NCBI GenBank assembly: GCA_934500705.1
Contig: CAKSTI010000001.1
Coordinates: 157,139-221,138 of the forward strand
Reading direction: 5' to 3'
DNA length: 64,000 bases
Origin: an uncultured Clostridia bacterium
GTDB lineage: Bacteria; Bacillota; Clostridia; UMGS1810
A model generated the notes under the pieces. It made no database searches. It saw only the letters and a program-made list of their open reading frames with translations, and had not been told where the DNA came from. The position numbers were made by a program, and so were the translations under genes. Within the stretch, counting starts at the first letter, position 1. Every line of letters begins with the position of its first letter. This document shows positions 11,501-27,873 of this stretch, piece by piece.

Positions 11501-11690
11501 CTCTGTTGGCGGTATCATTGTTAACAGTAAAAAGAAACTTTGCAGGGGTTTCTTTGACCGCACTTGTCAATTTAGCGGAGCCGGAGGAAAAAGCAGTCGT
11601 GTATGTCACATCTGCCGTATCCGCCATCGCCTGCGGCACAAATGTCAAAAGCATTGCGGCGCAAAGAAATAAACCTATAAATCTTTTCAT
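8547..11690 (-). CDS. Secreted multidomain carbohydrate esterase: C-terminal SGNH/GDSL hydrolase preceded by a beta-sandwich (CE2-like architecture), plus two copies of the shared WETE module
   Basis: Start reassigned to ATG 11690 (MKRFIGLFLCAAMLLTFVPQAMA) with AAGGAGA RBS; the track start at 11720 lacks an RBS. GDSL block VMFIGDSITSA, GTNDIY block, catalytic His in HPSASGHDQI. Module copies ...WETEYGYTDSMANDTVTEAKLALP...KIGYNEGGNGIKLRTP and ...YQDRIGYYCSRDDSTAYTQWLLRTPHP. Confidence 0.7.
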   Translation of the reverse strand: MKRFIGLFLCAAMLLTFVPQAMADTADVTYTTAFSSGSAKLTSAVKETPAKFLFTVNNDTANREYILVDEYNNTETGKKEYFIVKNTGYAAKPVSSTGKYAWEPENTKTAAGFINADENIGNYVPSDMQTYVSQHSYVLEKGGNVTAGTAVSSKYSLLSYNEYIAYQDRIGYYCSRDDSTAYTQWLLRTPHPTRDDYETLVGYNTTTGTNPQFKSVGVSTLFLLRPCFYITEDFFKNIKVKNAGSEVIKAIVAAGNGNGVYTDDEWNSFVSKDISSAISGKIKITSNGKVKSGYTLTAADVTASDNIVESAAKVEYLVSGDGETWASLDEGKTYTITNACAGKYICAVAEMADGTLYVSNSVQVGANLTHPIGWGKAPDGIKAYADAGDRFYFDEDGYNSYAYTLLESENGKTLLFSDRLDTEPIYNSSDVKQIYDVTDPNSIAYVINQAEFLTANILPEKYHNYIENNMWETEYGYTDSMANDTVTEAKLALPSMTELCKYANKIGYNEGGNGIKLRTPYTNYNASGNFEILLVSKAGTPSAAIVNSTSTFYHNRVEFYINNNAFKTLKIDAKKSGVKALRAINLPGILTESEAKALGYTDNELVRLGYGDGVDATLSNLHTDGAKIYAELNTVSNSTANAFAVVAIYDGDTLKSAAPATIALANGETNEILSAAVPSGIKDTDKVRIYLWNDTNTMVPLAPVLADVAYGDIATATAISGEVPYSDGMFSYKGRWEDKGTYMLSNWTRPYVDFAVKASALTVNFGSDTTQKTFKVFINGREVYRGSGYTGTSVDLSSVLASGVNKVRILNEAETTQLTFSGITVDASAKKLDAPANDINVMFIGDSITSATKGYSYLLPTELGYDFTTISRSGIAFLNGNYSGTVKEGALGMGTKFKQMQSLDKGEDAYDFSKSENYDMIFVNIGTNDIYKATVDGVEYDKREEFKREYKNFIEFIAEKYPNAKIYVIKPLRKQSLVAGDNASQNNAYYRSQTFDEIGKEAGTYGDKVEFIDTTGWDINFSSTENIHPSASGHDQIKNKLIDIISK

Positions 11691-11709
11691 TAAATACATC
11701 TCCTTAAAA

Positions 11710-13260: not shown

Positions 13261-13291
13261 TTTCATTTCTCCTTATATTATTTTTATATAA

Positions 13292-14173
13292 TCAGCCCTT
13301 TACGGCGCCAATCATAACACCTTTAACAAAATACTTCTGTAAGAACGGATATACGCAAAGCATCGGCACTGTGGAAATCACCATTGCCGCCGCCTGAATT
13401 GCATCGTCCGAGAGCCGTTCATTCATATCCTCATTCATTCCCTCGCCGAGCAGAGAACTGTCCACACTTTCTATCATCTGTTTCAGCTTTACTTGCAGAG
13501 GCATAAGGGTTGATTTGCTTATGTATATCATACCGTTAAAATATTCGTTCCACCAGGACACCGCATAGAACAAAGCTATGGTAGCAAGTGATGCAAGCGA
13601 CAGAGGGAGTATTATCTTTATGAATATGGAAATATCCCCTGCTCCGTCAATCTTTGCCGCTTCTTCCAGACTGTCCGGCAGACCCATAAAAAAGGTTCGC
13701 ATTACTATAAGGTTGTAAACCTGAATTAATCCCGGCAGCCACAGCGCAAAATATGTGTTTATGAGGTTCAGCGATTTTACAAGTATAAAGTTGGGAATGG
13801 TTCCGCCGGTAAACATCATAGTAAACACAACCATTCTCAAAAAGAACGTTGAGCCTATAAGCCTTTTTTTGGAGAGCACATATGCCCCCATAGTTGTCAT
13901 AACCATATTAAGAGCTGTCCCTATAAGAGTTATAAACACAGTATTTTTCATAGACCTTAAAAGCTGTCCGCCGCCGATTAGCGACTTATACGCCTTAACA
14001 TTTGCCTCCACAGGGAGGAGAAACACTTCACCCGACTCAATGGCTCTTACACTGCTGAATGATTTGGCAACAATGCTGATAAGCGGAAATACCGTTACAA
14101 ACATACAAACAGCAAGAAACAAATAATTTATTGTGTGAAATATCTTTTCACCGTTTGTCATTCTCTTAAACAT
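13292..14173 (-). CDS. ABC sugar transporter permease (LplC/YtcP-like)
   Basis: Six-TM permease with EAA loop EEAAKIDGAGDISIFIKIILP. Confidence 0.85.
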   Translation of the reverse strand: MFKRMTNGEKIFHTINYLFLAVCMFVTVFPLISIVAKSFSSVRAIESGEVFLLPVEANVKAYKSLIGGGQLLRSMKNTVFITLIGTALNMVMTTMGAYVLSKKRLIGSTFFLRMVVFTMMFTGGTIPNFILVKSLNLINTYFALWLPGLIQVYNLIVMRTFFMGLPDSLEEAAKIDGAGDISIFIKIILPLSLASLATIALFYAVSWWNEYFNGMIYISKSTLMPLQVKLKQMIESVDSSLLGEGMNEDMNERLSDDAIQAAAMVISTVPMLCVYPFLQKYFVKGVMIGAVKG

Positions 14174-14188
14174 ATCTTTATTTCCTTT

Positions 14189-15142
14189 CTACCAAATGCC
14201 TTCCTCGCCGAGCATTGTTGTTATTTTGTTGGTACCCATAACAAGGATAAGTCCTATAATTCCTTTAAAAAGTCCAAGCGCTGTTGTGTAACTGTACTGT
14301 CTGTCCTGCAATCCCACACGGTACTCATATGTACTGATAACGTCGGAAACTTCAAGCACGCCTTTGTTTTGGAGCATATATATCTGTTCAAATCCGACAG
14401 TGAGTATACTTCCCACTCGCATTATCAGCATAACCGCAATCGTACCGGCGATGCACGGGAGAGTTACGTTGAAAATCTGCTGAAACTTGTTTGCGCCATC
14501 TATCCTTGCCGCCTCATAGAGCTGCTGGTCAACGTTTGTAATTGCCGCAAGGTATATAACCGTTCCCCAACCTGCGCTTTGCCATATTCCGGAAAGAACA
14601 TATACGGCAATCCAGTGTTTGTTTGTTCCCATAAACGAAATATTCTTATAATTGGGAATTATGGTCGCAAGTATGTTGTTAACCGGGCCGTCAAGCGCAA
14701 AAATCTGAATTATCATTCCTCCGAGAATAACCCAAGAAATAAAGTGAGGTACATATAGAACTGTCTGCACGGTTCTTTTGTACGTCTTGTGCAGGACTTC
14801 GTTTATTAAAACGCTTAATATTATGGGTGCCGGAAAGCCGAACACAAGGTTTAACAGATTCAGCATCAGCGTATTTCTTAAAATAGTATAAAAGTTCGGC
14901 GACGAAAACAATCTCTTGAAATGATAAAGCCCTACCCACTCGCTGCCGATTATTCCCTTACCTATCTTATAGTCTTTAAATGCTATCACCGTTCCGAGCA
15001 TAGGCACGTACTTGAATATTATAAAATAAACAAGCACCGGCAAAAACATTGCATAAAGCCATCTGTCTCTGTAAATATTTCTTCCGAGTTTTTTGTAATC
15101 GTGAGTCTGAAATTTCTTTTTTGCGTTCACACTCAAATTCAT
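14189..15142 (-). CDS. ABC sugar transporter permease (LplB-like)
   Basis: EAA loop EAARIDGANKFQQIFNVTLP. True start MNLSVNAKKKF with AAGGGGGAG RBS at 15142; the 41 codons the track adds upstream have no RBS. Confidence 0.85.
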   Translation of the reverse strand: MNLSVNAKKKFQTHDYKKLGRNIYRDRWLYAMFLPVLVYFIIFKYVPMLGTVIAFKDYKIGKGIIGSEWVGLYHFKRLFSSPNFYTILRNTLMLNLLNLVFGFPAPIILSVLINEVLHKTYKRTVQTVLYVPHFISWVILGGMIIQIFALDGPVNNILATIIPNYKNISFMGTNKHWIAVYVLSGIWQSAGWGTVIYLAAITNVDQQLYEAARIDGANKFQQIFNVTLPCIAGTIAVMLIMRVGSILTVGFEQIYMLQNKGVLEVSDVISTYEYRVGLQDRQYSYTTALGLFKGIIGLILVMGTNKITTMLGEEGIW

Positions 15143-15391
15143 CTCCCCCTTCGCTGTTGTTTGTGCAAATTTATGATAATACAACAGACATACATTTGTA
15201 AAGTTGTAATTTTTGATAGTTTTGACTTCTTTTGATATAAATTGCACAAAACGGCGTGCAATCACCCTTTTAAGCTATACAATTATTTTAATGAAAAGCA
15301 TAAAAAGTATAAAATATCAAAATATGGCAGTTTACATTTATGGATAATGTATGATAAAATGTAAATATAATTTTAACGGGGACGTGATGTT

Positions 15392-17695
15392 TTGAGACTT
15401 AAATCTTCAAATGTAGATGGTACTTTTAAAAAGATTATTAAGATTAATTCCGTGCTGTTTTTCATTATAATTTTGTTTTCCGTTCTGTTTACATCGAGCA
15501 GGATATACAAGAATATGGCAACCGAAATTATAAAGGCAAACAATACTATTCTTGAACAGACAAAGCAAAACATCGACCTCCAACTTATGACGGTGGAACA
15601 GTACATAGATGACTATTCACGGAGTCAGTACGCCTTGGATTACATATCAACGCAGTCGCCTGATAATATGCTCATTATCGAAAATAAGTCGAGAATTGCA
15701 AAAATTGTGTCTACAAACAGTAAAATAAACAATATCTTCCTATATACATTTGCAAACGAACGTGTAATTTCGTCAACGGGAATTGTAAACTCATCAACAT
15801 TGTTTGATGATGATTTCAAACAGCAGCTAAAAGAACTTGAATATAAAAAATGGCTTGGAATACAGCTTAACAGCCGTTCCGGAAACTATCAGAATGCCAC
15901 TCTGCGTTATGCACGTATGCTCCCCGGTTCAAAAGCCGTTATAATACTTGACATTAACGAAACATTGCTATTTGACGCAATAAGCAAATACAGGGAAACC
16001 GAAAACGGCATATTTTTTATATCCGACAACACCGGAACAGTGCTCTCCCATACCGACAAAACATTACTTGCAAAGAGCGAACTTAAAAAAGTTTATATGA
16101 AAAACATCTTGGGAGAAAAAAGACCAACCGGCTCATTTGAGGGAAAGTATGAAAATTTAAAGAGCATAGTAAGCTACAACCGCTCAAACTACAACGGGTG
16201 GTATTACATAAACGTAATACCGTCTAAAAATATAATGAAACCGCTCGCACGGACAATACTTTCCATTGTAATAATATCGTCGCTTCTGTATGTACTCTCA
16301 ATACTGATAGCATACATACTTATTAAAATGTCCACTATGCCGATAGACAGCTTTGTTCACGCCGTTGCGAATACCGTCCGTGAAAATTCCGGCGGAAAAT
16401 CCACCGACGAGAGCTTTGGTGATTTTGACCAACTGGAAACACTGTTTGAAAATATGATTTATCAGCAAAAGGAAACTGAGATTAAACTTCAAAGCAGCTA
16501 TGAGGCGATAAAATGGCGCATAGTTATGGATTTGGTTTTGGGATTTACCGATGATTACGAAAAGTCTTTTATGTCGCTGGAACTCACCCACACGTCGCTT
16601 TTTCCCGAAAATTTTGTTGTGATGATATTTGAAATATGCAACAAGAACGAATACAAAAACGACGGCAAAACAAAAGAAATGAGCATAATCTGCAACGCCG
16701 TAAAAGCGGAGGCGGAAAGGCTTATGAACTGTGACACAAAGGGCTGTATTGTCAATAACGTCGGCGGTACAATGATTTCACTTCTCAGTTTTGACAGCGC
16801 CGATGAGAACAAAAACACAATTATTGCACTTTCGATTGCCGAAAACATTCTGTCCTTTGCCAAAAAACATTTTAACTGTAACGCCTGGATTGGCATAGGA
16901 AATATCTACAAGGATAAAAAAGACATAAAGCGTTCGTATGCCGACGCTGTTTATGCAATGAAGTATAAACTCATTAACGGCAGCGGCGGAATTTTGTTCA
17001 TAGACGACTTTGACGCAGAAAACAATATTTCATTCTCTGCTGTGTTCAAGAAAATGGAAACCGTTGTTTCCTCGCTCCAAGAACTCTCCGACGATGCAAT
17101 ATGCGACAGTGTTACAAAGATTATTAACGACATATCCAGCAACATCGTTACGACAGACACGTTCAAACAACTTGCACTGCACTTTATAATGCTTGTAACA
17201 TCGCATTACACAATACTCAGTAAAGCCGAAAATAATAACCAATCATTTATAAACACTCACGACCTCATAGAAAAGTGCGAAACAGTCAAACAGATAAACA
17301 CACTTGTCTGTCAAATCCTCACCGAAATGAAATACAGCATAACCGAGGCAAATAAGGAGTCGCAAAAGTATTCTGCCGTAATCGCAAAGGTAATTTCCTA
17401 CATAGACGCAAATTATGCCGACAGCAGTATATCGCTTGCACAAATAGCAAACAAATTCAATATGAGCGCTCCGCATCTCAGCAGAATTTTTAAAGAAGTA
17501 ACTTCCAAAAGATTTATCGACTACCTCATATTCAAGCGAATGGAAAAGGCAAAAGAGCTTCTCTCCACAACAAATATGAAGGTAGCCGCCGTTGCCGAAG
17601 CAGTCGGTTACGACACACAGGCAAGCTTTATGCGCATATTCAAAAAATATACCGGTGCAACCCCCACAAGCTGGAAAAATAATAACGGAAAATAA
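15392..17695 (+). CDS. Membrane-bound one-component AraC-family regulator: TM, extracytoplasmic sensor domain, TM, cytoplasmic domain, AraC HTH
   Basis: TTG start with GGGGA RBS. TM helices VLFFIIILFSVLF and ILSIVIISSLLYVLSILIAYILI flank a ~270 aa domain. C-terminal AraC HTH (...LAQIANKFNMSAPHLSRIFKEVT...AVGYDTQASFMRIFKKYTGATP). Transcribed divergently from the ABC/esterase operon. AT-rich coding. Confidence 0.8.
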   Translation: MRLKSSNVDGTFKKIIKINSVLFFIIILFSVLFTSSRIYKNMATEIIKANNTILEQTKQNIDLQLMTVEQYIDDYSRSQYALDYISTQSPDNMLIIENKSRIAKIVSTNSKINNIFLYTFANERVISSTGIVNSSTLFDDDFKQQLKELEYKKWLGIQLNSRSGNYQNATLRYARMLPGSKAVIILDINETLLFDAISKYRETENGIFFISDNTGTVLSHTDKTLLAKSELKKVYMKNILGEKRPTGSFEGKYENLKSIVSYNRSNYNGWYYINVIPSKNIMKPLARTILSIVIISSLLYVLSILIAYILIKMSTMPIDSFVHAVANTVRENSGGKSTDESFGDFDQLETLFENMIYQQKETEIKLQSSYEAIKWRIVMDLVLGFTDDYEKSFMSLELTHTSLFPENFVVMIFEICNKNEYKNDGKTKEMSIICNAVKAEAERLMNCDTKGCIVNNVGGTMISLLSFDSADENKNTIIALSIAENILSFAKKHFNCNAWIGIGNIYKDKKDIKRSYADAVYAMKYKLINGSGGILFIDDFDAENNISFSAVFKKMETVVSSLQELSDDAICDSVTKIINDISSNIVTTDTFKQLALHFIMLVTSHYTILSKAENNNQSFINTHDLIEKCETVKQINTLVCQILTEMKYSITEANKESQKYSAVIAKVISYIDANYADSSISLAQIANKFNMSAPHLSRIFKEVTSKRFIDYLIFKRMEKAKELLSTTNMKVAAVAEAVGYDTQASFMRIFKKYTGATPTSWKNNNGK

Positions 17696-17744: not shown

Positions 17745-17836
17745 TCTGGCGGAGATGGTGGGATTTGAACCCACGTGCCGCTCATCACGGCAACACGATT
17801 TCCAATCGTGCTCGTTATGACCACTTCGATACATCT
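17745..17836 (-). tRNA. tRNA-Ser: tRNA-Ser (anticodon GGA), class II with long variable arm and encoded CCA
   Basis: Minus-strand read GGAGATGTATCGAAGTGGTCATAACGAGCACGATTGGAAATCGTGTTGCCGTGATGAGCGGCACGTGGGTTCAAATCCCACCATCTCCGCCA. 7 bp acceptor stem GGAGATG/CATCTCC. Anticodon loop TTGGAAA. T-arm GTGGG-TTCAAAT-CCCAC. Long extra arm. Confidence 0.9.
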
Positions 17837-17865
17837 CCGTAACGGTTCTAACGAACCGACTCGAA

Positions 17866-18074: not shown

Positions 18075-21000
18075 TCATTTCTTTAACGATTGCGCAAATC
18101 TTGTCATAACCGCCGCAATTTCGGCTCTTGTAGCCGTATCGGACGGGTTAACCGTTTTGTCGGTCTTGCCCGACAAAATCTTACTTCCGACTGCAAACCG
18201 GATTGCCGGAACCGCATACTCGGAAATATCGGCATAATCGTCATAGGACAATATATTTGTATTGTCACCGGCAGATACGTCATAGCCTTTGTACTTGGCA
18301 TATCTCATAATCATTGCCGCCAACTGTTCACGCAGCAGAGGCTCATCTGTGCCAAACTCCGTGTCGGACAGGCCGAAAACTATGCCGTTTGCCACCGCCC
18401 AGTTTACGGCAGATGTGTACCACTCGCCGTCAGATACATCCGTAAATACGGCATTTTTTGTCACGCTCGGCTGATTTTCGAGCCTGTATAGTATGGTTAC
18501 AAACATTGAACGTGTGAGTATCTCCTCAGGAGAAAACTCCGTATCGGACGTACCCTGCATCAGCTTATTTGCATAGGCATACTTTACGTATTCATAATAC
18601 CATTCGGCATTGGATACATCGGCAAACGGCATAACTACAACCGTTTCTTCAACCTTTGGCGTTTCATCCTTCGTAGAAACTGTGTCGTCCTTTTTGGACG
18701 AACCGCCGCCGCTGCCGCTCCATTTCTTTGAGCCTTCGTCTTTGGTATAGTCAACAGTATAATACAGTTTAACATCATCGCCGTTTTTCAGCTTGTAATC
18801 CGCCATACCGACAGTCGGCGAATTGCCGTTTACGGTATAGAGCCAACCGCTGTTGTCGCCCTTGTCAAGTTGGGCAAGGGTTGTTTTTCCGTTGGTAACG
18901 GACTTAATGTAGCCGTCGTCAAGACCGTCTGCGGAAAGCTCCGTGCCCTCAAAGGCGAGCTTTATAAATTCCGCAACGGTTATGCCGTCCTTAATCTCAA
19001 TCTCTTTGCTGAGCCAGTTCTCATTTATTGCGGTAACGGTAAGTTTTGCGGTGTTCTTGGTTTCCGACGGATTTCCACTGTCACCGCCTGTTTCATTACT
19101 GCCGCCATCGTCTTTTTTGCCTTCGCCGCTCGCCTCGTAGGAGTCGAATGTCCTTATAACGTCGTCGTTTTCGGCACCTTTTGTCTTTTGAGTGTAAACA
19201 TTAAACACCGTGCAGGTTTTGAGCTTTTCAAGGATTATAAGAGCACGGAAACCTTGCTCCGTTGCAAGAGCACGGGCCTTCTCCCCTGCCGCACCGGACG
19301 CATATGCCGTAGTAAATCCGTTACCGCTGTCGTTTGCATAGAGCATAAGTGCGTCGGCAAGACTGCCGCCGGCCTTGACAAAGCGCTCGTCCGACGACGG
19401 GTTTATGCCCATTGCCGCAAGACCGGTAATCACCATTGCATCGGAGTTGACGTTGCCGTATGAGCCGTTTTCGCCCTGAACACTGCTAAGACCCTCGATT
19501 GCCGTATCGACAAAGTTCTTAACACTGCTGTCACTTTCATAAAAACGTGCAAGAGCCGCAAGCGCCGTGCCGGTTGTATCTACATCATCATAGCTTTCTC
19601 CGCCCCACGTATAATAGCACAAGCCGTTTTCGCCCTGTGCGTCAAGCAGAAGGGAAATCATATCGTTTCTTTGCTTGTCCGTAAGTTCCAGTCTGCCTGC
19701 CTCCTCAGCGAGCAAAATCCACGGTGCAGTGTAGTGACTGCTGCCAAAATCCATCTGTGCGAGTTTTTCGGCATTGCTGTACTGTGTTTCACTTCCGTAG
19801 GGAGTGAGTCTTGCAGAGTCTTTGCCCAGAGAGGCAAAGATAATCTCCGCCTTTGCCCTGTCTGTTGCAAGCGGTACGTTGCCGGCAAGATTATTGACGG
19901 CAAGGTTGAGGTAATTCTCCTTATCTGTGGTGTTCTCGCCAAATCCGAGATACTCGTAAACCGCCATATCAAACACAACCCACTCGCCCGATTTACCGTT
20001 GTAGCTTGCGGCGATGGAGTCCATCAATTTGTGCTTGGCGTCCTCACTCGGCTGAATGTTAAAGGTGACAGGTTTTCTTACAGTAATTCCGTTGTTATCG
20101 GTAAATTCCAGTGTTGCGGTTTCCTGCACGCTCTTTCCGCTCTCGTTGAGTTTGGTAAGCTTTGCGCCGAAGCCGTCACACTCGATGTAGCCTTTTGTTA
20201 TGTCCTTTTCGCCCTGTGTGCAGGACACTGTTATGTTTTCGTCGGCAGTTTCGCCGTCTTTTATGATGGTGATTGACTCCCCTGCCACTAAGGAAGAGGA
20301 CACGGCAATTACGCTCGGATATTTTTGCGTTTCGAGCAGAACGGTGATGTCAAGTTCCGATGTGCCGGTATATTCATTGTCGCCGCTGTCGATGACCCTG
20401 TCTTTGGCAATTCCGCTGCCGTTGGCAGGAACATAAAGTCTGTATACCTTTCCGCTTGTGCCGACAAGCGTTGCATCTGACTTGCAGGTAGAAATCAGTG
20501 GACGGCAGTCTCCGGTGGTTGAGCCGGGCTGACCCATAAGACCGCCGACGCACACACCGGGGGCGTATATTACGGCGTTGTTTTCGCAGTTTTCAAGCTG
20601 AACGCAGTTTTTGGTTGTGCCAACGATACCGCCTACACACACATCTTTATCCTCGCCGGTCATCATTATAAATCCGTTGTTTATGCAATTTGTGAGCGCA
20701 AGGCGGACGCTCGGCGTCTGATATTCAACGCCTTTGTCATATCCGCCGACAAAGCCGCCCGTTCCGGCGTTGCCCCTTGCAAGAGAGGATAAACCCATAT
20801 TAACAACGCAGTTTTCGAGCGTTACATTACCCCTTGCCCTTGCGGCAAGACCGCCTACATACGCATACGGTTCGGAGCAATAAACCTCACCGTTTAGTGT
20901 AAGGTTCTTAACTTCGGCATTTTCCAGACAGCCAAAAAAGCCAAAATAGCTCAGACCGGGATTGTCCACGGTTACGGTTATGCTGTGGCCGTTGCCGTCA

Positions 21001-21281
21001 AATGTACCCTTGAACGGAAAAACGGAGTTTTTGCCGAGCGGTTCCCAGGAGCCGTCCACAACAATGTCGGCATCAAGCCGCACGTCGGCGTCAGCGTTTT
21101 TGCCGTCGTTCACCATTTGCGCAAGCTCTGCAAGCGACTGTGCATCAGTTACGATGTACGGGTCACCGGCAGTGCCGCCGCCTGTTAAGCTGTCAGCCAA
21201 CGCAGGCATTGCCGCCGTGCTTACGGCAAGCATAAGCACGAGGGCAAGAGCGCCGAGCTTTGAAAAAACAGATTTTTTCAT
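18075..21281 (-). CDS. SLH-anchored surface protein, 1068 aa: N-terminal GLUG-type beta-helix, prenyltransferase-like alpha/alpha-toroid repeats, DUF4430-like beta domain, three C-terminal SLH repeats
   Basis: Signal peptide MKKSVFSKLGALALVLMLAVSTAAMPALA. GLUG-like repeats YVGGLAARARGN, GGFVGGYD, GGIVGTT, VGGLMGQ. Repeats of Q..ENG.. type (DAQGENGLCYY, VQGENGSYGNV). Segment GWLYTVNGNSPTVGMADYKLKNGDDVKLYY resembles DUF4430. SLH repeats FADVSNAEWYYEYVKYAYANKLMQG..., FTDVSDGEWYTSAVNWAVANGIVFG..., YDDYADISEYAVPAIRFAV.... Confidence 0.7.
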   Translation of the reverse strand: MKKSVFSKLGALALVLMLAVSTAAMPALADSLTGGGTAGDPYIVTDAQSLAELAQMVNDGKNADADVRLDADIVVDGSWEPLGKNSVFPFKGTFDGNGHSITVTVDNPGLSYFGFFGCLENAEVKNLTLNGEVYCSEPYAYVGGLAARARGNVTLENCVVNMGLSSLARGNAGTGGFVGGYDKGVEYQTPSVRLALTNCINNGFIMMTGEDKDVCVGGIVGTTKNCVQLENCENNAVIYAPGVCVGGLMGQPGSTTGDCRPLISTCKSDATLVGTSGKVYRLYVPANGSGIAKDRVIDSGDNEYTGTSELDITVLLETQKYPSVIAVSSSLVAGESITIIKDGETADENITVSCTQGEKDITKGYIECDGFGAKLTKLNESGKSVQETATLEFTDNNGITVRKPVTFNIQPSEDAKHKLMDSIAASYNGKSGEWVVFDMAVYEYLGFGENTTDKENYLNLAVNNLAGNVPLATDRAKAEIIFASLGKDSARLTPYGSETQYSNAEKLAQMDFGSSHYTAPWILLAEEAGRLELTDKQRNDMISLLLDAQGENGLCYYTWGGESYDDVDTTGTALAALARFYESDSSVKNFVDTAIEGLSSVQGENGSYGNVNSDAMVITGLAAMGINPSSDERFVKAGGSLADALMLYANDSGNGFTTAYASGAAGEKARALATEQGFRALIILEKLKTCTVFNVYTQKTKGAENDDVIRTFDSYEASGEGKKDDGGSNETGGDSGNPSETKNTAKLTVTAINENWLSKEIEIKDGITVAEFIKLAFEGTELSADGLDDGYIKSVTNGKTTLAQLDKGDNSGWLYTVNGNSPTVGMADYKLKNGDDVKLYYTVDYTKDEGSKKWSGSGGGSSKKDDTVSTKDETPKVEETVVVMPFADVSNAEWYYEYVKYAYANKLMQGTSDTEFSPEEILTRSMFVTILYRLENQPSVTKNAVFTDVSDGEWYTSAVNWAVANGIVFGLSDTEFGTDEPLLREQLAAMIMRYAKYKGYDVSAGDNTNILSYDDYADISEYAVPAIRFAVGSKILSGKTDKTVNPSDTATRAEIAAVMTRFAQSLKK

Positions 21282-21320: not shown

Positions 21321-22682
21321 TTACTTCTGCGCCGCCTCACAGAGAGGATATATGTCCTCCAAGGAACGCAAAAGCATTGCTTTTACAGTTTTTGCACCGG
21401 TTGCGTTGAAATCTTTTGGTGCATCTACGCTTTGATTTGCACCTGCATCAAATTTTCTTTTTACCATACCAACGCTTGTAAGTGTGTCACCGTTGTACGA
21501 TGCAAATACTACGCAATATGTGCCTGTCTTTGCTGCGGAAACAACCGCTTTTATTTTACTATCATCAAGTGTTATTGAGTATGTAATCGGCTCGTCACCG
21601 CCGGATGTTTTCCATACCGGAACGGGGTAGCCGTCATATTTGCCTTCAACTACTTTAAAGCCTTCTAAATTGAGGGATTTCATTTCGGTAGTTGTTTTAG
21701 CAGTGTAACCGTTTAAACCGTAGTTACCGTTTTTAAGCATCGCAAAAGAGCTCCACGAAGACGGACTTGGGTTCAAAGTGCTGTCATAATAAAATGCTGT
21801 TATCTTTTTATTAGTAATAGAACTTGTATTGTATGAAATACCAAAATTTTTACTTGCACCAACCTTTGCGCAAAGAAGTGTATTTGATAGCTCCAATGAC
21901 ACACTACCACTATTTATATATCCTACAACACCTCCGGCATTTCCACTTCCCGAAATATTTCCAAGTATAGAGCTGTTAGATATATTGACATTACTATAAT
22001 ACTGTGCCGAGCCAATAATACCTCCGTAATATGTACTGCTTGCACCGGATATTGCAACATTGCTTATGCAGTTGTCCACCGTAATAGTCGTACACTTATC
22101 TTTACTACCGGTAATCATACCAACAATTCCGCCAACAAATGTATAATCTTTCCCGGTTTTATATGCAATACTTCCAGACACAATACAATTATCAATCGTT
22201 GCCATACTACCCTCAGATATTTGTCCGGCTAAAACACCTACGGTATTAACCTTATTAATGTCGGTTATGTCTTTGATTTCAACTCTAATGTTTTTAACGG
22301 TTCCTGCCAGTTCGCCAATCAATCCGGTATTTACATACGTTGTACCTTGCCAAGTAGAAGTACCCGTTCCACCTGCAAGCGTTAAATTTGAAATAGTATG
22401 TCCCTTACCGTCAAACTCGCCCGTAAGTTTCTTTATAACATACGTTTTATTATCAAGCACAACGCCATTCATATCAATATCAGCGCCAAGCTGCACGTAC
22501 CATACCTCATCTTTTGTATTAAGCTCTTTGAGTTGTCCCGCCGTTGTAATAACATAGGGGTCTGTTTGAGTTCCTGAACCCTTTAAGGTAGTCGAGTCCG
22601 CCGACACTGCCGCCGGCATAGCGCACACGGCAACGACCAGTGCCGCAAGTAACGCTGTCACTTTTGAAATTGTTTTGTTCAT
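21321..22682 (-). CDS. Secreted GLUG/beta-helix repeat protein, 453 aa, paralogue of the N-terminus of the 18075..21281 product
   Basis: Start reassigned to MNKTISKVTALLAALVVAVCAMPAAVSA (GGAAAGGA RBS). SADSTTLKGSGTQTDPYVITTAGQLKELN parallels SLTGGGTAGDPYIVTDAQSLAELAQ of the neighbour. Repeats FVGGIVGMITGS, YYGGIIGSAQ, AGGVVGYINSG. Confidence 0.65.
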   Translation of the reverse strand: MNKTISKVTALLAALVVAVCAMPAAVSADSTTLKGSGTQTDPYVITTAGQLKELNTKDEVWYVQLGADIDMNGVVLDNKTYVIKKLTGEFDGKGHTISNLTLAGGTGTSTWQGTTYVNTGLIGELAGTVKNIRVEIKDITDINKVNTVGVLAGQISEGSMATIDNCIVSGSIAYKTGKDYTFVGGIVGMITGSKDKCTTITVDNCISNVAISGASSTYYGGIIGSAQYYSNVNISNSSILGNISGSGNAGGVVGYINSGSVSLELSNTLLCAKVGASKNFGISYNTSSITNKKITAFYYDSTLNPSPSSWSSFAMLKNGNYGLNGYTAKTTTEMKSLNLEGFKVVEGKYDGYPVPVWKTSGGDEPITYSITLDDSKIKAVVSAAKTGTYCVVFASYNGDTLTSVGMVKRKFDAGANQSVDAPKDFNATGAKTVKAMLLRSLEDIYPLCEAAQK

Positions 22683-22748
22683 TTTTCTTTCGTCCTTTCC
22701 AAAAATATCTATGTCAATCCACGAATGCGCACGCAAACACGCCCACAT

Positions 22749-22780
22749 AAAACAAAAGCGGCAACCTAATAGGTTGCCGC
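22749..22780 (-). terminator. Intrinsic terminator inside the leader of the GLUG gene (GCGGCAACC-TATT-AGGTTGCCGC + TTTTGTTTT)
   Basis: Perfect 9 bp GC-rich stem and 4 nt loop followed by a U-tract on the minus strand, ~66 nt upstream of the ATG at 22682. Confidence 0.55.
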
Positions 22781-23063
22781 AGCAGTTTTTCTGCAAGCGT
22801 CACAATACGGCATACAAAGCCGTAAACATTGCCCATACACTCAGCGGAGCAACATCAAAGCAGGTCTTCTGACTCGTGCCCTATAAAAGCGTCACATTTC
22901 CTGCCTTCTCAGTTTCCCAATGACTGACTTTCGTCAACGGAGAATGTGACATTCGGGTACATACAGCGACTGGTATCGTCCGAGGTTCGCACTCGGTTCC
23001 CTTTTCACCCGTCAAGGCCCTTGGGCGCATGGCGGACACTTTGTGTGAGTTTTGATATTTATT
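22781..23063 (-). ncRNA. Unclassified ~300 nt structured RNA leader (candidate riboswitch/attenuator) between a strong promoter and the terminator above
   Basis: No coding capacity with an RBS. GC-rich blocks: hairpin CCGAG-TGCGAAC-CTCGG, GGGTGAAAAGGGAACC, three GTGAC(A/G) motifs (TGTGACGCTT appears twice). The upstream segment GTTGCTCCGC can pair with the 5' arm of the terminator, giving an antiterminator alternative. Confidence 0.3.
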
Positions 23064-23069
23064 AATTGC

Positions 23070-23098
23070 ATTGTACCACAATTTTTACTTATTATCAA
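23070..23098 (-). promoter_or_regulatory. Strong sigma-A promoter with extended -10 (TTGATA - 17 bp - TGgTACAAT) driving the leader RNA and probably the GLUG gene
   Basis: Minus strand reads cTTGATAataagtaaaaattgTGGTACAATgcaattaa. No comparable promoter lies between the terminator and the ATG at 22682. Confidence 0.55.
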
Positions 23099-23128: not shown

Positions 23129-23920
23129 TCAATTTTTTGCAAGTTTTTCATATATTTCCCTTATGTTTTCATACACAAAGGTCGGTTTTACCTCGCTTTT
23201 TTCCAAATCATCGAGTGTGCCCTCGCCGCTCAAAACAAAAATTGAGCATATGCCTGCATTTACACCGCAGGCAATATCGGTGTAGAGTCTGTCGCCCACG
23301 ACGGCGGTTTGACCTTTGGTACAGCCGCATTTTTTCATTGCAAGATACGCCATTTCGGGGCAGGGTTTGCCTATAAAGCGTGGACGGCGCTTTGTTGCGT
23401 TAAAGAGCATTTCGCTGACCGAGCCGCAATCCGGCACAAAGCCGTACCACGTGGGGCAGACAAGGTCGGGATTTGTGGCAATGTAGTCAACGTCCCTGTT
23501 TAGCAATATGCACGCATCTTCCAACTTTTTAAACGAAAGTTCGGTGTCAAAGCCCATACAGAGGCAGTCTGTGCCGTCCTGCAATTTGGCGGTTACGGGG
23601 AGTCCGAAGTCCGCAAGCTGAGATACAAACGACTCTGTTCCGAGGGCGTATATCTTGCTGTAATTTTTATTTTTAAGATAGAGGGCGGTTGCATCGGTTG
23701 AGGTCAAAAAATCGTCTTTTGACGCCTTGATGCCGAGTGCGGCAAGTTTTTCCACGTATTTGTTTACGCTCTTTGACGAATTGTTCGTAAGAAAAATATA
23801 TCTGCCGCCGCTCCTCTTAACATAATCCAAAAAATCAAGAGTGCCGTCAAAAAGGTCGTTGTCAAGATATATGGTACCGTCCATATCCAACAGAAAAAGT
23901 TTAATATCCTTTATATCCAT
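23129..23920 (-). CDS. HAD-superfamily hydrolase, subfamily IIA (NagD/YutF-like sugar-phosphatase)
   Basis: Start taken at MDIKDIKLFLLDMDGTIYLDN with GGAGA RBS. DxDGT motif I. FLTNNSS motif II. Confidence 0.75.
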   Translation of the reverse strand: MDIKDIKLFLLDMDGTIYLDNDLFDGTLDFLDYVKRSGGRYIFLTNNSSKSVNKYVEKLAALGIKASKDDFLTSTDATALYLKNKNYSKIYALGTESFVSQLADFGLPVTAKLQDGTDCLCMGFDTELSFKKLEDACILLNRDVDYIATNPDLVCPTWYGFVPDCGSVSEMLFNATKRRPRFIGKPCPEMAYLAMKKCGCTKGQTAVVGDRLYTDIACGVNAGICSIFVLSGEGTLDDLEKSEVKPTFVYENIREIYEKLAKN

Positions 23921-23924
23921 AATT

Positions 23925-24287
23925 TTAATTCTCCGAAGCATCTGTATTTTGTGTTACAACAACATCGACACCCGTACCGGCAACATCTTTTACTGCAACA
24001 TCGCCGATTTTAATCGGCAGAGGAATACGGACGGAATTTATGACGGACATACATTCAAATATTTTGCCTTTGGGTATCGGCTGTGCGGTTTTTACCGAAA
24101 CGGGAGTACCGCAAGTGCTCATTACTGTTGAGGTAACCACTCTTGTAGGATTGGTGCACTCGTCTTTGGCGTATTTTGCGCCACGGGGACAGGTATTGCC
24201 GGTCACATCTGTGACACTGCCGTTATCTAACGTAACTTCTATACGGCACCCTATGGGGCACACTATGCAGGTGAGTTGTCTTTTCAT
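23925..24287 (-). CDS. DUF1667-family small Cys-rich protein
   Basis: MKRQLTCIVCPIGCRIEV...CPRGAKYAKDEC, with CxxCxxxC and CxxG motifs. Sits downstream of the two flavoenzymes, as in Clostridial glpA-like clusters. Confidence 0.7.
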   Translation of the reverse strand: MKRQLTCIVCPIGCRIEVTLDNGSVTDVTGNTCPRGAKYAKDECTNPTRVVTSTVMSTCGTPVSVKTAQPIPKGKIFECMSVINSVRIPLPIKIGDVAVKDVAGTGVDVVVTQNTDASEN

Positions 24288-25525
24288 TTTTCTCCCTCCA
24301 ATTCAAAGCGCAGTTTTTCGGCGTTTTTAAAAGCGTCGGACTTTAAAACAATTCTGTTCATTTCTCCGGGGGCGGCTTTAACGAGTTTTTTGGAAAACAC
24401 GGTTTCCGTACCGCTTTTTACAACAACCGACGCATTTCTGAACACGTCGCTGACTCTGAAAAATACAGCCGTGTCCTTTGTCTGTGTGATTTTCTGCGGA
24501 ACGGTGTAGCGTATTCTGCCGTCGGTTTCTATCGGTACGGACACGGTACTTTCAAGACCGCTTTTAATGTATTCCGCCGCAGATTTTCCGGCGGTTTCCG
24601 CCTCATCGGAAACAAAGTCAACGAGGTCGTGAACGTGAAGCACATTGCCGCAGGCAAATATGCCGTCGATATCAGTCTGCCGGTTCTGGTCAACCACTGC
24701 GCCGTTTGTAATGCGGTCAAGGGTGACGTTTGCCTTTTTGGTAAGTTCGTTTTCGGGGATTAGTCCAACAGAGAGGAGAAGTGTATCACACGGGATATAC
24801 TGCTCTGTTCCGCAAACAGGCTTTCTGTCCTCTCCCACTTTGGCAACCGTCACGCCGACTACTCTGTCTTTGCCGTGAATTTGCGTAACCGTATGGCTCA
24901 GCATAAGCGGTATGTCAAAGTCATTAAGGCATTGTTCGATGTTTCTGGCAAGACCGCCGGAGTACGGCATCAGCTCACATACGGCGTGCACTTTTGCACC
25001 CTCCAATGTCATTCTGCGTGCCATAATAAGTCCGATGTCGCCCGAACCTAATATAACAACGTCTTTGCCGGGCATATAACCCTTCATATTAACAAGTTTT
25101 TGTGCAGTGCCGGCGCTGTAAATACCTGCCGGGCGTGTGCCGGCAATATTGAGCGCACCCTTGGGTCTTTCACGGCAGCCCATGGCGAGGATTACCGCCT
25201 TTGTGCTTACGGTGAATATTCCGTCGGTTTTATTGACGGCGGTCACGTTTTTATCCGCATCAATGTCTAAAACCATAGTATTGAGTTTATATTGAATGCC
25301 GTACTGCTTAACCTTTTGTTCGTACCGTGCTGCGTATTCCGGTCCTGTGAGTTCCTCGCCGAACTTATGCAAACCAAATCCGTTATGTATGCACTGCTGC
25401 AAAATTCCGCCGAGGTGTGAGTCACGCTCCAAGATTAAAATATCCTTAATGCCGCTCTCGTATGCAGACACTGCCGCACTCATTCCGGCAGGGCCTCCGC
25501 CTATTATAACCAAATCCGTCATCAC
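24284..25525 (-). CDS. FAD/NAD(P)-binding pyridine-nucleotide-disulfide-type oxidoreductase
   Basis: N-terminal dinucleotide fold LVIIGGGPAGMSAAVSA. Second Rossmann motif VVILGSGDIGLIMARR. 4 nt overlap with the upstream gene. Confidence 0.75.
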   Translation of the reverse strand: MMTDLVIIGGGPAGMSAAVSAYESGIKDILILERDSHLGGILQQCIHNGFGLHKFGEELTGPEYAARYEQKVKQYGIQYKLNTMVLDIDADKNVTAVNKTDGIFTVSTKAVILAMGCRERPKGALNIAGTRPAGIYSAGTAQKLVNMKGYMPGKDVVILGSGDIGLIMARRMTLEGAKVHAVCELMPYSGGLARNIEQCLNDFDIPLMLSHTVTQIHGKDRVVGVTVAKVGEDRKPVCGTEQYIPCDTLLLSVGLIPENELTKKANVTLDRITNGAVVDQNRQTDIDGIFACGNVLHVHDLVDFVSDEAETAGKSAAEYIKSGLESTVSVPIETDGRIRYTVPQKITQTKDTAVFFRVSDVFRNASVVVKSGTETVFSKKLVKAAPGEMNRIVLKSDAFKNAEKLRFELEGEK

Positions 25526-26964
25526 ACAGCCCCCTTTGTCTTTCCGACGGTAATGTGGGAATTACCGCCGCTTTTGGTAATGTCATCATATTTTTTGCCA
25601 AGTTCACGTGACAGAATTTCGGCAACGTAAGGCAGGCAAAAGCCGCCCTGGCAACGCCCCATACCGGAGCGTGTGCGGCGTTTTACGCCGTCTATGTCAC
25701 GTGCACCGGGGTTTTTGTAAATTGCCTCGACAATCTCGCCTTCGGTTACGGTTTCGCATCGGCAGATTACTCTGCCAAAGCGTGGGTCTTGCTTTATAAT
25801 TCGGTTTTTCTCGTCAATATCGGCGTCACGGAAGCGGTGCATCGGCTCTCTTACGGGGTTGAAGTTCTCATTGATTTCAAGTTTCAAACCGCTGTTTCTC
25901 AAAAGCTCTGCAACGTATTCCGCTATTGCCGGCGATGCCGAAAGTCCGGGGGACTCTATGGCGGCAACATTTACAAATCCGCCGTCTTTAACGTTTATTA
26001 TAAAATCTCCGGTGTCGCCTACGGCACGCAGACCGCAAAAGGACGTAATCGTTTTTGCAAACGAAACGGAAGGTACGTTCTCCATCGCCTCGGAGATAAT
26101 TTTGGCAAACCCCTCAGGTGTGGTGCTCTTGTCCTCTTTATCCTCCATATCAACGGCGGTGGGTCCTGTCAGGTAATTGCCGTCCACTGTGGGGGAAAGC
26201 AAAATTCCCTTGCCTTTTTCGGACGGAGTTCTGAATATTGTCCGCTCGGTAAGCGTACCGCACTCGCTGTCGAGGAGAATATATTCACCACGTCTTGGGT
26301 GGATTTTAAACGAAAAGTCGCCTGCTATGTTTGCAACCCTGTCGGCATACACTCCGGCAGCATTTACCACGTACTTTGCACAAATACTGTCTTTTTCCGA
26401 CGCAAGTCTATACGCGCCGTCCGTATGCGATATTGAGCTAACCTCAAAATTGAGTTTAAGTTCGGCGCCGTTATCCATTGCGTTACCCACGGCGGCTATG
26501 CAAAGTCCGTAGGGGCAAATTATTGCGCCTGTCGGAGCATAGAGTGCGCCAACGGCATTATCGGTGATATTCGGTTCCAATAATTTAAGCTCTTTGGCAT
26601 CTATTATTTTAAGTCCGTCAACGCCGTTTTTTACGCCACGATTATAGAGATTTTCCACTTCTGTCATATCGTCATCGTTCAAGGCTATTACAAGCGAGCC
26701 GTTATTTTTGTAGCGGACGCCGAGCTGTTTTGCGGTTTCCGCCATCATCTTTGAACCTCTGACGTTAAGGCGGGCTTTGAGCGAGCCTTCCTTTGCGTCA
26801 AATCCTGCGTGGACTATGGCAGAATTTGCCTTTGTGGCTCCGCACGCAACATCGTTTTCCCTTTCAAGAATACAGACTTTTAAATCATACTTGGTAAGTT
26901 CTCTTGCAATCATTGCGCCAACAACTCCGGCGCCGATTACTGCAACATCATACAAGTCGGTCAT
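25522..26964 (-). CDS. FAD-dependent glycerol-3-phosphate dehydrogenase/oxidase-like enzyme (GlpA-like) with C-terminal BFD-like [2Fe-2S] motif
   Basis: DVAVIGAGVVGAMIAREL FAD fold. C-terminal CRCETVTEGEIVEAIYKNPGARDIDGVKRRTRSGMGRCQGGFC. Confidence 0.7.
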   Translation of the reverse strand: MTDLYDVAVIGAGVVGAMIARELTKYDLKVCILERENDVACGATKANSAIVHAGFDAKEGSLKARLNVRGSKMMAETAKQLGVRYKNNGSLVIALNDDDMTEVENLYNRGVKNGVDGLKIIDAKELKLLEPNITDNAVGALYAPTGAIICPYGLCIAAVGNAMDNGAELKLNFEVSSISHTDGAYRLASEKDSICAKYVVNAAGVYADRVANIAGDFSFKIHPRRGEYILLDSECGTLTERTIFRTPSEKGKGILLSPTVDGNYLTGPTAVDMEDKEDKSTTPEGFAKIISEAMENVPSVSFAKTITSFCGLRAVGDTGDFIINVKDGGFVNVAAIESPGLSASPAIAEYVAELLRNSGLKLEINENFNPVREPMHRFRDADIDEKNRIIKQDPRFGRVICRCETVTEGEIVEAIYKNPGARDIDGVKRRTRSGMGRCQGGFCLPYVAEILSRELGKKYDDITKSGGNSHITVGKTKGAV

Positions 26965-27117: not shown

Positions 27118-27873
27118 ATGTACGGAAACGAACGGGAAAGAGAAATTATGGATCTGCTCGCCCAAAACAGATACGCAACGGTTGAATACCTGGCGGAAAA
27201 GATACACATAAGTCCGTCGAGCATACGCAGGGACCTTAAAAAGTTGGAAATGGAAGGCCTTATTACCAGAAGTTACGGCGGAGCGGAAATCAAAAAGTCA
27301 ATTAACAGGCAGATACCGTACTTTTTGCGAAGTCACAAAAACACCAAGGAGAAAAACTTTGTTGCGCAAATTGCGTCATCGCTTGTAAAAAGCGGAGATG
27401 TGGTGTTTCTTGACAGTTCAACGAGTACATATTTTATGATTGAACACATAAAAAGCATTAAGGGAATAACCGTTATAACAAACAGTCTTGCAAGTATGAC
27501 GGCGCTTGCGGAATACGGGGTAAATTCGTTTTTTGCCGGCGGACACTTAAACCCGGAAAACCGCTCCTGCTGTGTGGGTGCGCAGACAGAGGAATTTATA
27601 CGCAGTGTGCACGCAGATATTTATTTTTTCTCCGTGCAGTCCCTCACAAGCGACGGAAGTCTGTACGACTGCTTTGCAAACGAGATAATGACAAGACGTC
27701 TTATGCTCGAAAACTCGGAAAAGAAAGTTTTTCTCTGCGACAGCAGTAAAATAAACCACTACTCCGCATACAGGCTGTGCGATGTGTCCGAGCTTGACTG
27801 CGTGATAAGCGACATCGACCTTAAAAACTATCTTGTAAAAGAATACAAAAATACTGACTTTATATATAGGTAA
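27118..27873 (+). CDS. DeoR/GlpR-family transcriptional regulator
   Basis: N-terminal DeoR HTH (REREIMDLLAQNRYATVEYLAEKIHISPSSIRRDLKKLE) and C-terminal sugar-phosphate-binding domain. AAGAGGTG RBS. Divergent from the glpA-like operon. Confidence 0.8.
   Translation: MYGNEREREIMDLLAQNRYATVEYLAEKIHISPSSIRRDLKKLEMEGLITRSYGGAEIKKSINRQIPYFLRSHKNTKEKNFVAQIASSLVKSGDVVFLDSSTSTYFMIEHIKSIKGITVITNSLASMTALAEYGVNSFFAGGHLNPENRSCCVGAQTEEFIRSVHADIYFFSVQSLTSDGSLYDCFANEIMTRRLMLENSEKKVFLCDSSKINHYSAYRLCDVSELDCVISDIDLKNYLVKEYKNTDFIYR

Follow-up and report, generated by a model that had tools for sequence, protein, structure and literature searches.

We analysed a 64,000-nucleotide (nt) stretch of DNA from an uncultured Clostridia bacterium (contig CAKSTI010000001.1, positions 157,139 to 221,138; this whole stretch is called the window below), in which a two-gene operon on the minus strand is preceded by a leader located between positions 22749 and 23098. 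The leader is a cobalamin riboswitch, the operon encodes a predicted surface protein with a transcobalamin-like fold, and the layout of the expression platform leads us to lean towards a switch which is turned on by corrinoid. The initial annotation of this DNA had described a riboswitch leader extending from promoter to terminator and had proposed that the surface protein downstream is probably expressed through read-through of this terminator, and our results supported both statements. A consensus scan located the promoter, TTGATA-17-TACAAT with TG upstream of the -10 box (10 of 12 consensus matches). This promoter is kept in the syntenic loci L082-L087 (related loci are designated by L numbers), and we place the start of transcription at approximately 23063. 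The terminator (GCGGCAACC/GGUUGCCGC followed by a U-tract) is present as it was described, and its arms covary across lineages. The ATG of gene 1 at 22682 does lie 66 nt from the U-tract, no promoter-like site was identified by the consensus scan between the terminator and this ATG, and the approximately 300 nt of non-coding leader between promoter and terminator are real. The coordinates of all features are given in Table 1.

Table 1. Features of the riboswitch leader and of the operon, given in window coordinates.
Feature	Position	Strand	Description	Basis
Promoter, sigma-70 type	23070..23098	(-)	-35 TTGATA, 17-nt spacer, extended -10 TGgTACAAT	consensus scan
Cobalamin riboswitch aptamer	22842..23058	(-)	RF00174, class I type with P6 extension	cmscan
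P1	5' strand ~23045-23037; 3' strand 22861-22856	(-)		covariance-model alignment
P2 hairpin	23036-23008	(-)		
P4/L4 T-loop hairpin	22996-22980	(-)		
L5 loop context	22968..22977	(-)	GAUACCAGUC; CAG at 22972-22970 is the proposed kissing-loop triplet	covariance-model alignment
B12 box	22874-22860	(-)	AGUCAGAAGACCUGC	
Linker hairpins between P1 and P13	22807..22853	(-)	X1 22853-22828 (GUUGCUC...GGGCAAU); X2 22823-22807 (ACGGC...GCCGU)	
Second TGTGACGCTT copy	22795..22804	(-)	2-nt overlap with the 5' end of P13; candidate weak anti-P13 strand (UUGUGA:UUGCAG)	
P13 hairpin	22777..22796	(-)	5' strand UUGCAG (22796-22791), loop L13 AAAAACUG (22790-22783), 3' strand CUGCGG (22782-22777)	
L13 CUG	22785-22783	(-)	proposed kissing-loop partner of L5	
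Intrinsic terminator	22749..22780	(-)	stem-loop GCGGCAACCU-AUU-AGGUUGCCGC (22780-22758) and U-tract UUUUGUUUU (22757-22749)	terminator scan
Ribosome-binding region and gene 1 ATG	22680..22700	(-)	GGAAAGGA	read from sequence
Gene 1	21321..22682	(-)	453-aa secreted protein: signal peptide, right-handed beta-helix (GLUG / IgA1-protease-N-like), C-terminal Ig-like beta-sandwich	
Gene 2	18075..21281	(-)	1068-aa surface protein: signal peptide, beta-helix, alpha/alpha toroid and DUF4430 (SLBB beta-grasp), three SLH repeats	

The whole 64-kb window was scanned against Rfam 15 at the gathering threshold. We obtained two matches, one of which is RF00174, the Cobalamin riboswitch (66 bits, E 4.6e-14, model positions 1-189 of 189, untruncated). 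Since this score is twice the gathering score of the family (31.5 bits), the leader belongs to a known riboswitch class: it is a class-I cobalamin (corrinoid) riboswitch of RF00174. The statement that the leader matched no cobalamin consensus was thus wrong, as RF00174 covers it over the full model, and the term "unclassified" falls with the match to a named family. Alignment with the covariance model shows P1, P2, P4 with the L4 T-loop, P5 with L5, the P6 extension and the B12 box. The core motifs of the family were all found: the B12 box (consensus ..GCCAGGAGACCUGCC..), the L4 T-loop GGUGnnAAnCC in the form of GAGUGCGAACCUC, and the P6-extension motif GCCACUG...GGGAAGGC in the form of GUCAUUGGGAAACUGAGAAGGC (around 22923-22904). 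The internal CCGAG-TGCGAAC-CTCGG hairpin which had been noticed earlier is real and corresponds to P4/L4 of the aptamer. In a permissive scan of the leader DapZ and isrD matched over the terminator far below their gathering scores, and we rejected them as chance matches to the shape of a terminator.

Protein 1 carries no anchor motif and has no Pfam or NCBIfam match. The Pfam GLUG model (PF07581) did not match it even at E<=10, and a faint similarity to Peptidase_M26_N was obtained (E 0.11). In its AlphaFold2 (AF2) model a beta-helix is combined with an Ig-like sandwich (predicted local distance difference test, pLDDT, 86), and the best fold match in the PDB is 3n6z (E 3e-8), a Bacteroides "putative IgA1 protease". 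The name "GLUG protein" used earlier is therefore only approximate: the fold is GLUG-like, with its resemblance to 3n6z, and distant relatives bear PF07581, but no GLUG match is called in the protein itself. Compared with residues 1-224 of protein 2, protein 1 shows 31% identity (E 1e-10) and is, by this sequence similarity, a paralogue of the N-terminal domain of protein 2.

Protein 2 begins with a hydrophobic signal sequence (read from the translation). Pfam matches were obtained for DUF4430 (PF14478, residues 768-842, 47.8 bits with a cutoff of 23.8, E 2e-12) and for three C-terminal SLH repeats from residue 885 (E 2.3e-29). With signal peptide and three SLH repeats it has the predicted features of an SLH-anchored cell-surface protein. 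A search of the PDB with its sequence returned only 3n6z and SLH proteins and no transcobalamin-type match. Since sequence-only searches were uninformative on function, a fold search was needed. For this purpose residues 300-860 were modelled with AF2 using 25 homologues (pLDDT 88). The top 13 PDB fold matches in Foldseek were transcobalamin, haptocorrin and intrinsic factor (E 1e-10 to 1e-7, probability 1.00), and they spanned the toroid and the beta-grasp over approximately 470 columns. The template modelling scores (TM-scores) were 0.3-0.44, low because of domain orientation and of the extra N-terminal segment. The modelled fold points to a transcobalamin-like module in the core of protein 2, which would bind corrinoid.

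Burroughs et al. (2007; PMC1796856) predicted that transcobalamin-type SLBB surface proteins scavenge B12 on Gram-positive cells. Protein 2 resembles these predicted binders and transcobalamin in its order of domains, toroid and then DUF4430 beta-grasp, and in being secreted and surface-tethered. It differs from transcobalamin-type proteins in the additional N-terminal beta-helix, the three SLH repeats and the separate paralogous beta-helix partner. Riboswitch control is not mentioned in PMC1796856. Our literature search returned no paper linking bacterial DUF4430 to riboswitch control or reporting DUF4430 expression, and a search for DUF4430 together with cobalamin returned nothing relevant beyond PMC1796856.

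We found approximately 50 full-length relatives of protein 1, all of them from metagenomes or metagenome-assembled genomes of Clostridia. A profile search of genome contigs with protein 1 yielded mostly unrelated GLUG-repeat proteins, with only L002-L004 being true relatives. Eleven orthologous loci had enough upstream DNA for comparison. Their protein-1 identities range from 92% to 38%, and they lie in at least four unrelated neighbourhoods. In all 11 a full-length RF00174 match (43-74 bits) precedes the protein-1 gene and a large DUF4430 gene follows it, and the riboswitch is always located immediately upstream of the two-gene cassette, in the same orientation. Because the aptamer precedes the cassette in each of these loci, we conclude that riboswitch and cassette move together. 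The initial annotation had proposed a check for homologous leaders and covariation in relatives, and both were found: RF00174 in 11 of 11 leaders, and covariation in P13 and the kissing loop as described below.

Further, metagenomes were scanned with a 20-mer of the P6 extension of the aptamer, which yielded 120 further loci. The next gene was mostly related to protein 2 or protein 1, and most of these loci precede DUF4430 or toroid proteins. In one class the gene for a secreted toroid-only protein comes first, and behind it lie those for a membrane-anchored DUF4430 protein and for a complete energy-coupling factor (ECF) importer, which comprises CbiQ/EcfT, a double ABC ATPase in fused form and an S-component; CbiQ/CbiO-type ECF genes had also been noted by Burroughs et al. 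(PMC1796856). Other classes contain DUF4430 lipoproteins, giant proteins of up to 2,916 aa and, occasionally, extracytoplasmic CbiK, CbiM or methylmalonyl-CoA mutase. In cluster 1, which ranks second in abundance among the classes (n = 23; for example L199, extract 403-750), the first gene encodes a small cytoplasmic-looking protein and precedes a DUF4430 lipoprotein. The first gene after the riboswitch in L168 encodes "homing endonuclease associated repeats" (PF18780), and the cluster 1 protein is similar to it by eye.

A short hairpin directly 5' of the terminator is common to all lineages. Its stem is CACAG/CUGUG, UUGCAG/CUGCGG (window), CGCGG/CCGCG, CAUGG/CCGUG, UCACG/CGUGA, UUGCAA/UUGCGG or CGCAG/CUGCG. 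In a 21-lineage alignment 98% of the cells were paired and compensatory changes were present in 3 of 5 pairs (11 double-change cells observed, 2.6 in shuffles; observed score reached in 0 of 500 shuffles). When the partner strand was slid as a control, pairing dropped to 6-56%. The A-rich loop of this hairpin has at its end a triplet with complementarity to the L5 triplet. This complementarity holds in 23 of 24 distinct leaders (permuted mean 12.3; observed value reached in 0 of 20000 permutations). Most lineages have the pair CAG:CUG, while it is CUG:CAG in L097 and L194, CCG:CGG in L150, L189, L142-type and L163, and GCCA:UGGC in L133. From the covarying stem and the L5-complementary loop triplet we identified the hairpin as P13 and its loop as L13. 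The sequence comparison thus supports an L5-L13 kissing loop as the link between aptamer and expression platform.

Counting of kissing pairs in fixed columns of alignment A3 was abandoned, as the register of the triplet shifts by one column between CAG-type and CCG-type L5, and therefore a register-tolerant permutation test was used. The other possible register of P13 (CAG-loop-CUG, which leaves the terminator free) was excluded by the CGCGG/CCGCG and CAUGG/CCGUG stems, in which the loop CUG is retained. Between P1 and P13 the linker hairpins recur at matching positions in the minimum free energy folds of four lineages, although their sequences differ.

In every parsed lineage (23 parsed combinations) the 3' strand of P13 lies within the 5' arm of the terminator, with an overlap of 3-9 nt, and five lineages have the kissing-loop triplet, too, within the stem of the terminator. 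The 5' strand of P13 duplicates the end of the terminator 3' arm. In the window the shared bases are GCGG (22780-22777), the last four nt of P13 and the first four of the terminator 5' arm. As the 3' strand of P13 is at the same time the base of the terminator 5' arm, P13 with its kissing loop and the full terminator are mutually exclusive. The calculated energies in the window are -5.5 kcal/mol for P13, -18.4 kcal/mol for the full terminator and -11.3 kcal/mol for P13 together with a residual 6-bp hairpin.

Several pairings upstream of P13 were considered as further parts of the platform. A strand able to pair with the P13 5' strand occurs a few nt upstream of it (variants UUUGUG..CACAGA, UUUAUG..CAUGGG and UUGCG..CGCAG). 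In 15 of 22 lineages the resulting hairpin reaches a score of 4 or more, and compensatory variants occur. Such an anti-P13 strand would make the platform a four-strand attenuator which terminates by default. We regard it as only suggestive, because it is weak in the window (3 Watson-Crick and 3 G-U pairs) and absent in some lineages. In the window it coincides with a copy of TGTGACGCTT, a sequence which, as had been noticed, occurs twice: we found exactly two copies in the 64 kb, at 22896-22887 and 22804-22795, both within the leader (0.21 expected by chance; two or more copies in 3 of 100 shuffles). The copy at 22887-22896 is the 3' strand of the P6-extension helix and the copy at 22795-22804 is located just 5' of P13. 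Invasion of the aptamer helix by the latter copy is conceivable (partner GUCACA), and so is a weak pairing between it and the P13 5' strand. The repeat is restricted to the window lineage.

The initial annotation had also proposed an antiterminator formed by GTTGCTCCGC (22853-22844) and the 5' arm of the terminator. These strands can pair, but the pairing is not a conserved switching element: GTTGCTCCGC is also the 5' strand of the local hairpin X1. This antiterminator, GUUGCUCCGC with GCGGCAAC, was therefore rejected: its 5' partner is held in the local hairpin, the pairing is not coupled to P1, and the L088/L002 lineage lacks an equivalent. We found no conserved alternative antiterminator in the lineage comparison and folds.

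We compared the leader with characterized cobalamin riboswitches. With the class I adenosylcobalamin (AdoCbl) type of RF00174 (4GMA, 4GXY) it shares P1-P6 and the P6 extension, the B12 box, the T-loop of L4 (GGUGCGAACC) and, by covariation, the L5-L13 kissing loop, as well as the position in a 5' leader with an intrinsic terminator, which is typical for Firmicutes. It differs from this type in L5, which is UACCAG in the window and UCCCG in the consensus, and in P13, which abuts and overlaps the terminator. L13 differs too: measured cobalamin switches have CGxG at its 5' end, whereas in the window L13 is A-rich and the kissing triplet is located at the 3' end.

Two regulatory designs are relevant for the sign of the response. 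The first is the activating cobT riboswitch of Alkalihalobacillus halodurans (Procknow et al. 2023, PMC10653944), in which the 3' strand of P13 (UGAGG-CAUGGCAUAC-CCUCA) starts the terminator arm (CCUCAGCUU/AAGCUGGGG), and P13 locked by ligand acts as the antiterminator (PMC10653944). Common to cobT and the window are a P13 of about 5 bp, the kissing of L5 by its loop of roughly 10 nt, and the mutual exclusion of P13 and terminator. The overlap amounts to 5 of 9 bp in cobT, 4 of 10 bp in the window and 5-9 nt in its relatives. The energies calculated for cobT as a control (P13 -4.4, terminator -13.2, P13 with residual hairpin -6.5 kcal/mol) parallel those of the window. Differences were found in the kissing pair (GCCCG:UGGC with a bulge in cobT, CAG:CUG in the window) and in the target, which is lower-ligand activation (cobT) in A. 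halodurans and extracellular corrinoid binders in the window. The A. halodurans switch responds best to cobinamide.

The second design is the repressing metE riboswitch of Priestia megaterium, in which P13 lies well upstream of the terminator and its 3' strand is complementary to the terminator 5' arm, so that an antiterminator is formed (PMC10653944). All 36 natural repressing terminator switches in Data Set S1 of Kennedy 2022 have a non-empty spacer between P13' and terminator, and in the alignment of that study the kissing bases of the repressing switches are located at the 5' end of L13. The window has in common with metE and these 36 switches the aptamer class, a presumed dependence on the kissing loop and the terminator platform. 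In contrast to them it has no spacer, its P13 3' strand is part of the terminator 5' arm, and its P13 5' strand mimics the 3' arm. Thus the defining feature of the metE type is absent from the window and the layout of the activating cobT type is present. This layout is found in none of the 36 measured repressing terminator switches and in the single known ON switch. No further activating cobalamin riboswitch was found in the literature beyond PMC10653944.

Stabilisation of the kissing loop by ligand is established for the cobalamin riboswitch class. By analogy with the solved cobalamin riboswitches, we infer that ligand stabilises the kissing loop here too, and the proposed regulatory sign depends on this step. 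Transcription would start at approximately 23063 and the aptamer would fold, followed by the 6-bp P13 hairpin (UUGCAG / CUGCGG) as the expression platform. The CUG at the 3' end of the A-rich L13 would then pair with the CAG in L5 to form the kissing loop. When no corrinoid is bound, the more stable terminator would displace P13 by means of its 3' arm, and RNA polymerase would stop at approximately 22749. When corrinoid is bound, the clamped L5-L13 kissing loop would lock P13, and the terminator would lose four basal G-C-rich pairs next to the U-tract, which would result in read-through and expression of the operon. We consider it slightly better than an even bet that corrinoid binding prevents termination in this way and that the leader is an ON switch.

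Several points weigh against activation. B12 represses nearly all genes of corrinoid uptake and scavenging, including those of the Bacteroides surface binders (PMC13616437), and since a single natural activating corrinoid riboswitch is known, the prior for activation is low. The same aptamer subtype and wiring also precede a complete ECF importer and a CbiM gene (L163), for which induction by B12 would run against intuition. In the window P13 and terminator overlap by only 4 nt, with G-U at two of the P13 pairs involved, a residual hairpin of 6 bp (-5.8 kcal/mol) is left when P13 forms, and the kissing loop consists of just 3-4 bp. The leaders are phylogenetically related, so that the shuffle statistics overstate independence. 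Equilibrium folding gives the terminator in all states and does not discriminate the sign. Two possible indicators of the sign were rejected. The equilibrium base-pair probability of the terminator, calculated for the full leader or for the platform alone, was 0.7-1.0 in both types of controls; as terminators form alike in repressing and activating controls, this test is uninformative. Gene function was rejected as well: one relative precedes methylmalonyl-CoA mutase, yet measured mutA riboswitches repress, and cobT switches occur with both signs, which makes gene identity unreliable in this respect.

The main rival reading is the opposite sign, namely a conventional OFF cobalamin riboswitch, in which corrinoid would promote termination and surface capture of B12 would be expressed when intracellular B12 is low. 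We hold this to be quite possible, at somewhat less than an even chance. In such a switch the ligand-free antiterminator would be P13 itself or a pairing that we did not recognise, and the overlap of P13 with the terminator would be incidental or offset by tertiary effects. Nearly every characterized cobalamin riboswitch represses, including all 38 in Kennedy 2022, a review states that these riboswitches are OFF switches (PMC11477304), the surface cobamide binders of Bacteroides are repressed by riboswitches (PMC13616437), and relatives in the same aptamer subfamily precede the ECF importer and CbiM. The pairing GUUGCUCCGC:GCGGCAAC is present in the window and has analogous pairings of 5-6 bp in L004, L089 and L090, and the overlap in the window lineage is small. 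An OFF switch would, however, need an antiterminator for the ligand to disrupt, and no conserved one was found; the earlier candidate has a local hairpin as competitor and is missing from L088/L002. Further, P13 at -5.5 kcal/mol would be unable by itself to hold off a terminator of -18.4 kcal/mol, which parallels the activating control, where expression is low without ligand. In several lineages the kissing triplet is inside the terminator stem, so that a kissing loop stabilised by ligand and the terminator would be directly exclusive. Together with the absence of this layout from the 36 measured repressing switches, these arguments favour activation by corrinoid as the reading of the leader.

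Two other explanations concern the nature of the element. Corrinoid-responsive small RNAs (sRNAs) of the EutX/Rli55 design exist in Enterococcus and Listeria, and the strong promoter and strong terminator which flank the element would also fit a functional, terminated sRNA of approximately 310 nt resembling the AdoCbl-responsive EutX/Rli55, with the operon transcribed from an unrecognised promoter of its own. We consider this very unlikely: the region between terminator and ATG contains no promoter-like site, the element accompanies the cassette in at least four genomic contexts, immediately upstream and in the same orientation, and neither a target nor a partner was identified. The probability that the leader is a novel, unclassified riboswitch or attenuator for another ligand appears practically nil. 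The earlier failure to spot a consensus by eye is all that speaks for such a class; against it stand the full-length RF00174 match at 66 bits with B12 box, L4 T-loop and P6 extension, the matches in all orthologous leaders, and the downstream protein with a transcobalamin fold.

The identity of the locus is in itself ordinary, as it represents one of the commonest riboswitch classes and is settled by an Rfam scan. What is new is the regulon and the proposed sign, within a class that is known. Riboswitch control is tied here to Gram-positive extracellular corrinoid binders of the toroid and DUF4430 type, in this case predicted to be anchored in the S-layer and provided with a beta-helix partner. 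Gram-positive extracellular cobamide capture was called "entirely uncharacterized" in a 2026 review. The locus and its approximately 120 relatives are candidates for a Firmicute counterpart of the Bacteroides BtuG/H/J relay in the competition for B12 in the gut. The window operon resembles the relay of BtuG, BtuH, BtuJ and BtuK (PMC13616437) in the surface capture of corrinoids under riboswitch control, which is predicted for the window, in the gut commensal host and in the multi-protein operon. The folds are unrelated, being beta-propeller, jellyroll and a novel globular domain in Bacteroides and toroid with beta-grasp in the window; moreover, the Bacteroides proteins are outer-membrane lipoproteins feeding BtuB, and their riboswitches repress translation.

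Whether the proposal extends to the more than 100 related loci in gut Clostridia is, in our estimate, evenly balanced. These loci may represent a widespread class of corrinoid-activated riboswitches, in which P13 and the kissing loop, locked by ligand, serve as the antiterminator and the extracellular capture machinery is induced by its substrate, at a time when the cell already senses corrinoid in its interior and not otherwise. In many lineages this design would be backed by the upstream anti-P13 strand and so take the form of a four-strand attenuator. The regulon would include S-layer-anchored binders, split toroid and DUF4430 proteins, ECF importers and extracytoplasmic CbiK. Like xenosiderophore receptors, it would follow the logic of substrate induction and not that of the homeostatic end-product repression which is assumed for all B12 uptake systems. 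If the ON sign is true, B12 acquisition in many gut Clostridia would be substrate-induced and not end-product-repressed, which would change models of B12 competition and sharing in the microbiome and provide many natural ON switches for the design of biosensors.

We made some additional observations in individual related loci. The open reading frame located 434 nt after the 20-mer in L097 encodes a lipoprotein CbiK cobaltochelatase (PF06180, E 5e-89, signal peptide and lipobox); such an extracytoplasmic CbiK may well bind corrinoids or metals outside the cell. It is preceded by the riboswitch subtype of the window, in which the kissing loop is swapped here (L5 CUG : L13 CAG). Giant secreted relatives of protein 2 (2,630-2,916 aa) follow an aptamer variant in L157, L169, L184 and L210; in this variant a terminator stem of 15 bp apparently begins with the kissing partner CGGU, and a P13 hairpin is not evident. 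The CbiM leader L163 contains a P13-like hairpin (CAUAG-AUAAACGG-CUGUG) and an imperfect terminator. Just after its P1, GAGGGAGA is complementary to UCUCCCU just upstream of the ribosome-binding site (RBS), which hints at translational control as a further layer of regulation. A related aptamer in L187 is located upstream of a gene for methylmalonyl-CoA mutase (PF01642, E 2e-131), a B12-dependent enzyme. L143 has the same type of leader with a different downstream open reading frame. The kissing triplet CGG corresponds to the first three bases of the terminator stem in this leader type. In L085, L086 and L087 public gene callers begin protein 1 at an ATG within the U-tract (UUUUAUG), which gives 464-471 aa. 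This start adds 11-18 spurious residues; the RBS-linked ATG is located 66 nt further downstream.

A conserved cluster upstream of the leader (23129-26964, minus strand) encodes a DAO/Fer2_BFD dehydrogenase, Pyr_redox_2 and DUF1667 proteins and a HAD hydrolase (glpA-like glycerol-3-phosphate dehydrogenase genes), and a divergent DeoR regulator is located at 27118-27873. This cluster is syntenic in L082-L087 and shows no link to B12. On the other side, a tRNA-Ser(GGA) gene (17747-17838, minus strand) lies approximately 240 nt downstream of gene 2, and its position is kept in L082-L085 and L087. The region 8547-17695, which is unrelated to the riboswitch, contains genes for a 1057-aa secreted protein, a sugar-type ABC transporter (solute-binding protein and two permeases) and a 767-aa AraC-family regulator, the orthologues of which match dCache_1 and HTH_18. 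In L086 an rve-family transposase stands in place of the downstream AraC/dCache regulator, and no tRNA was detected at this locus by the Rfam scan.

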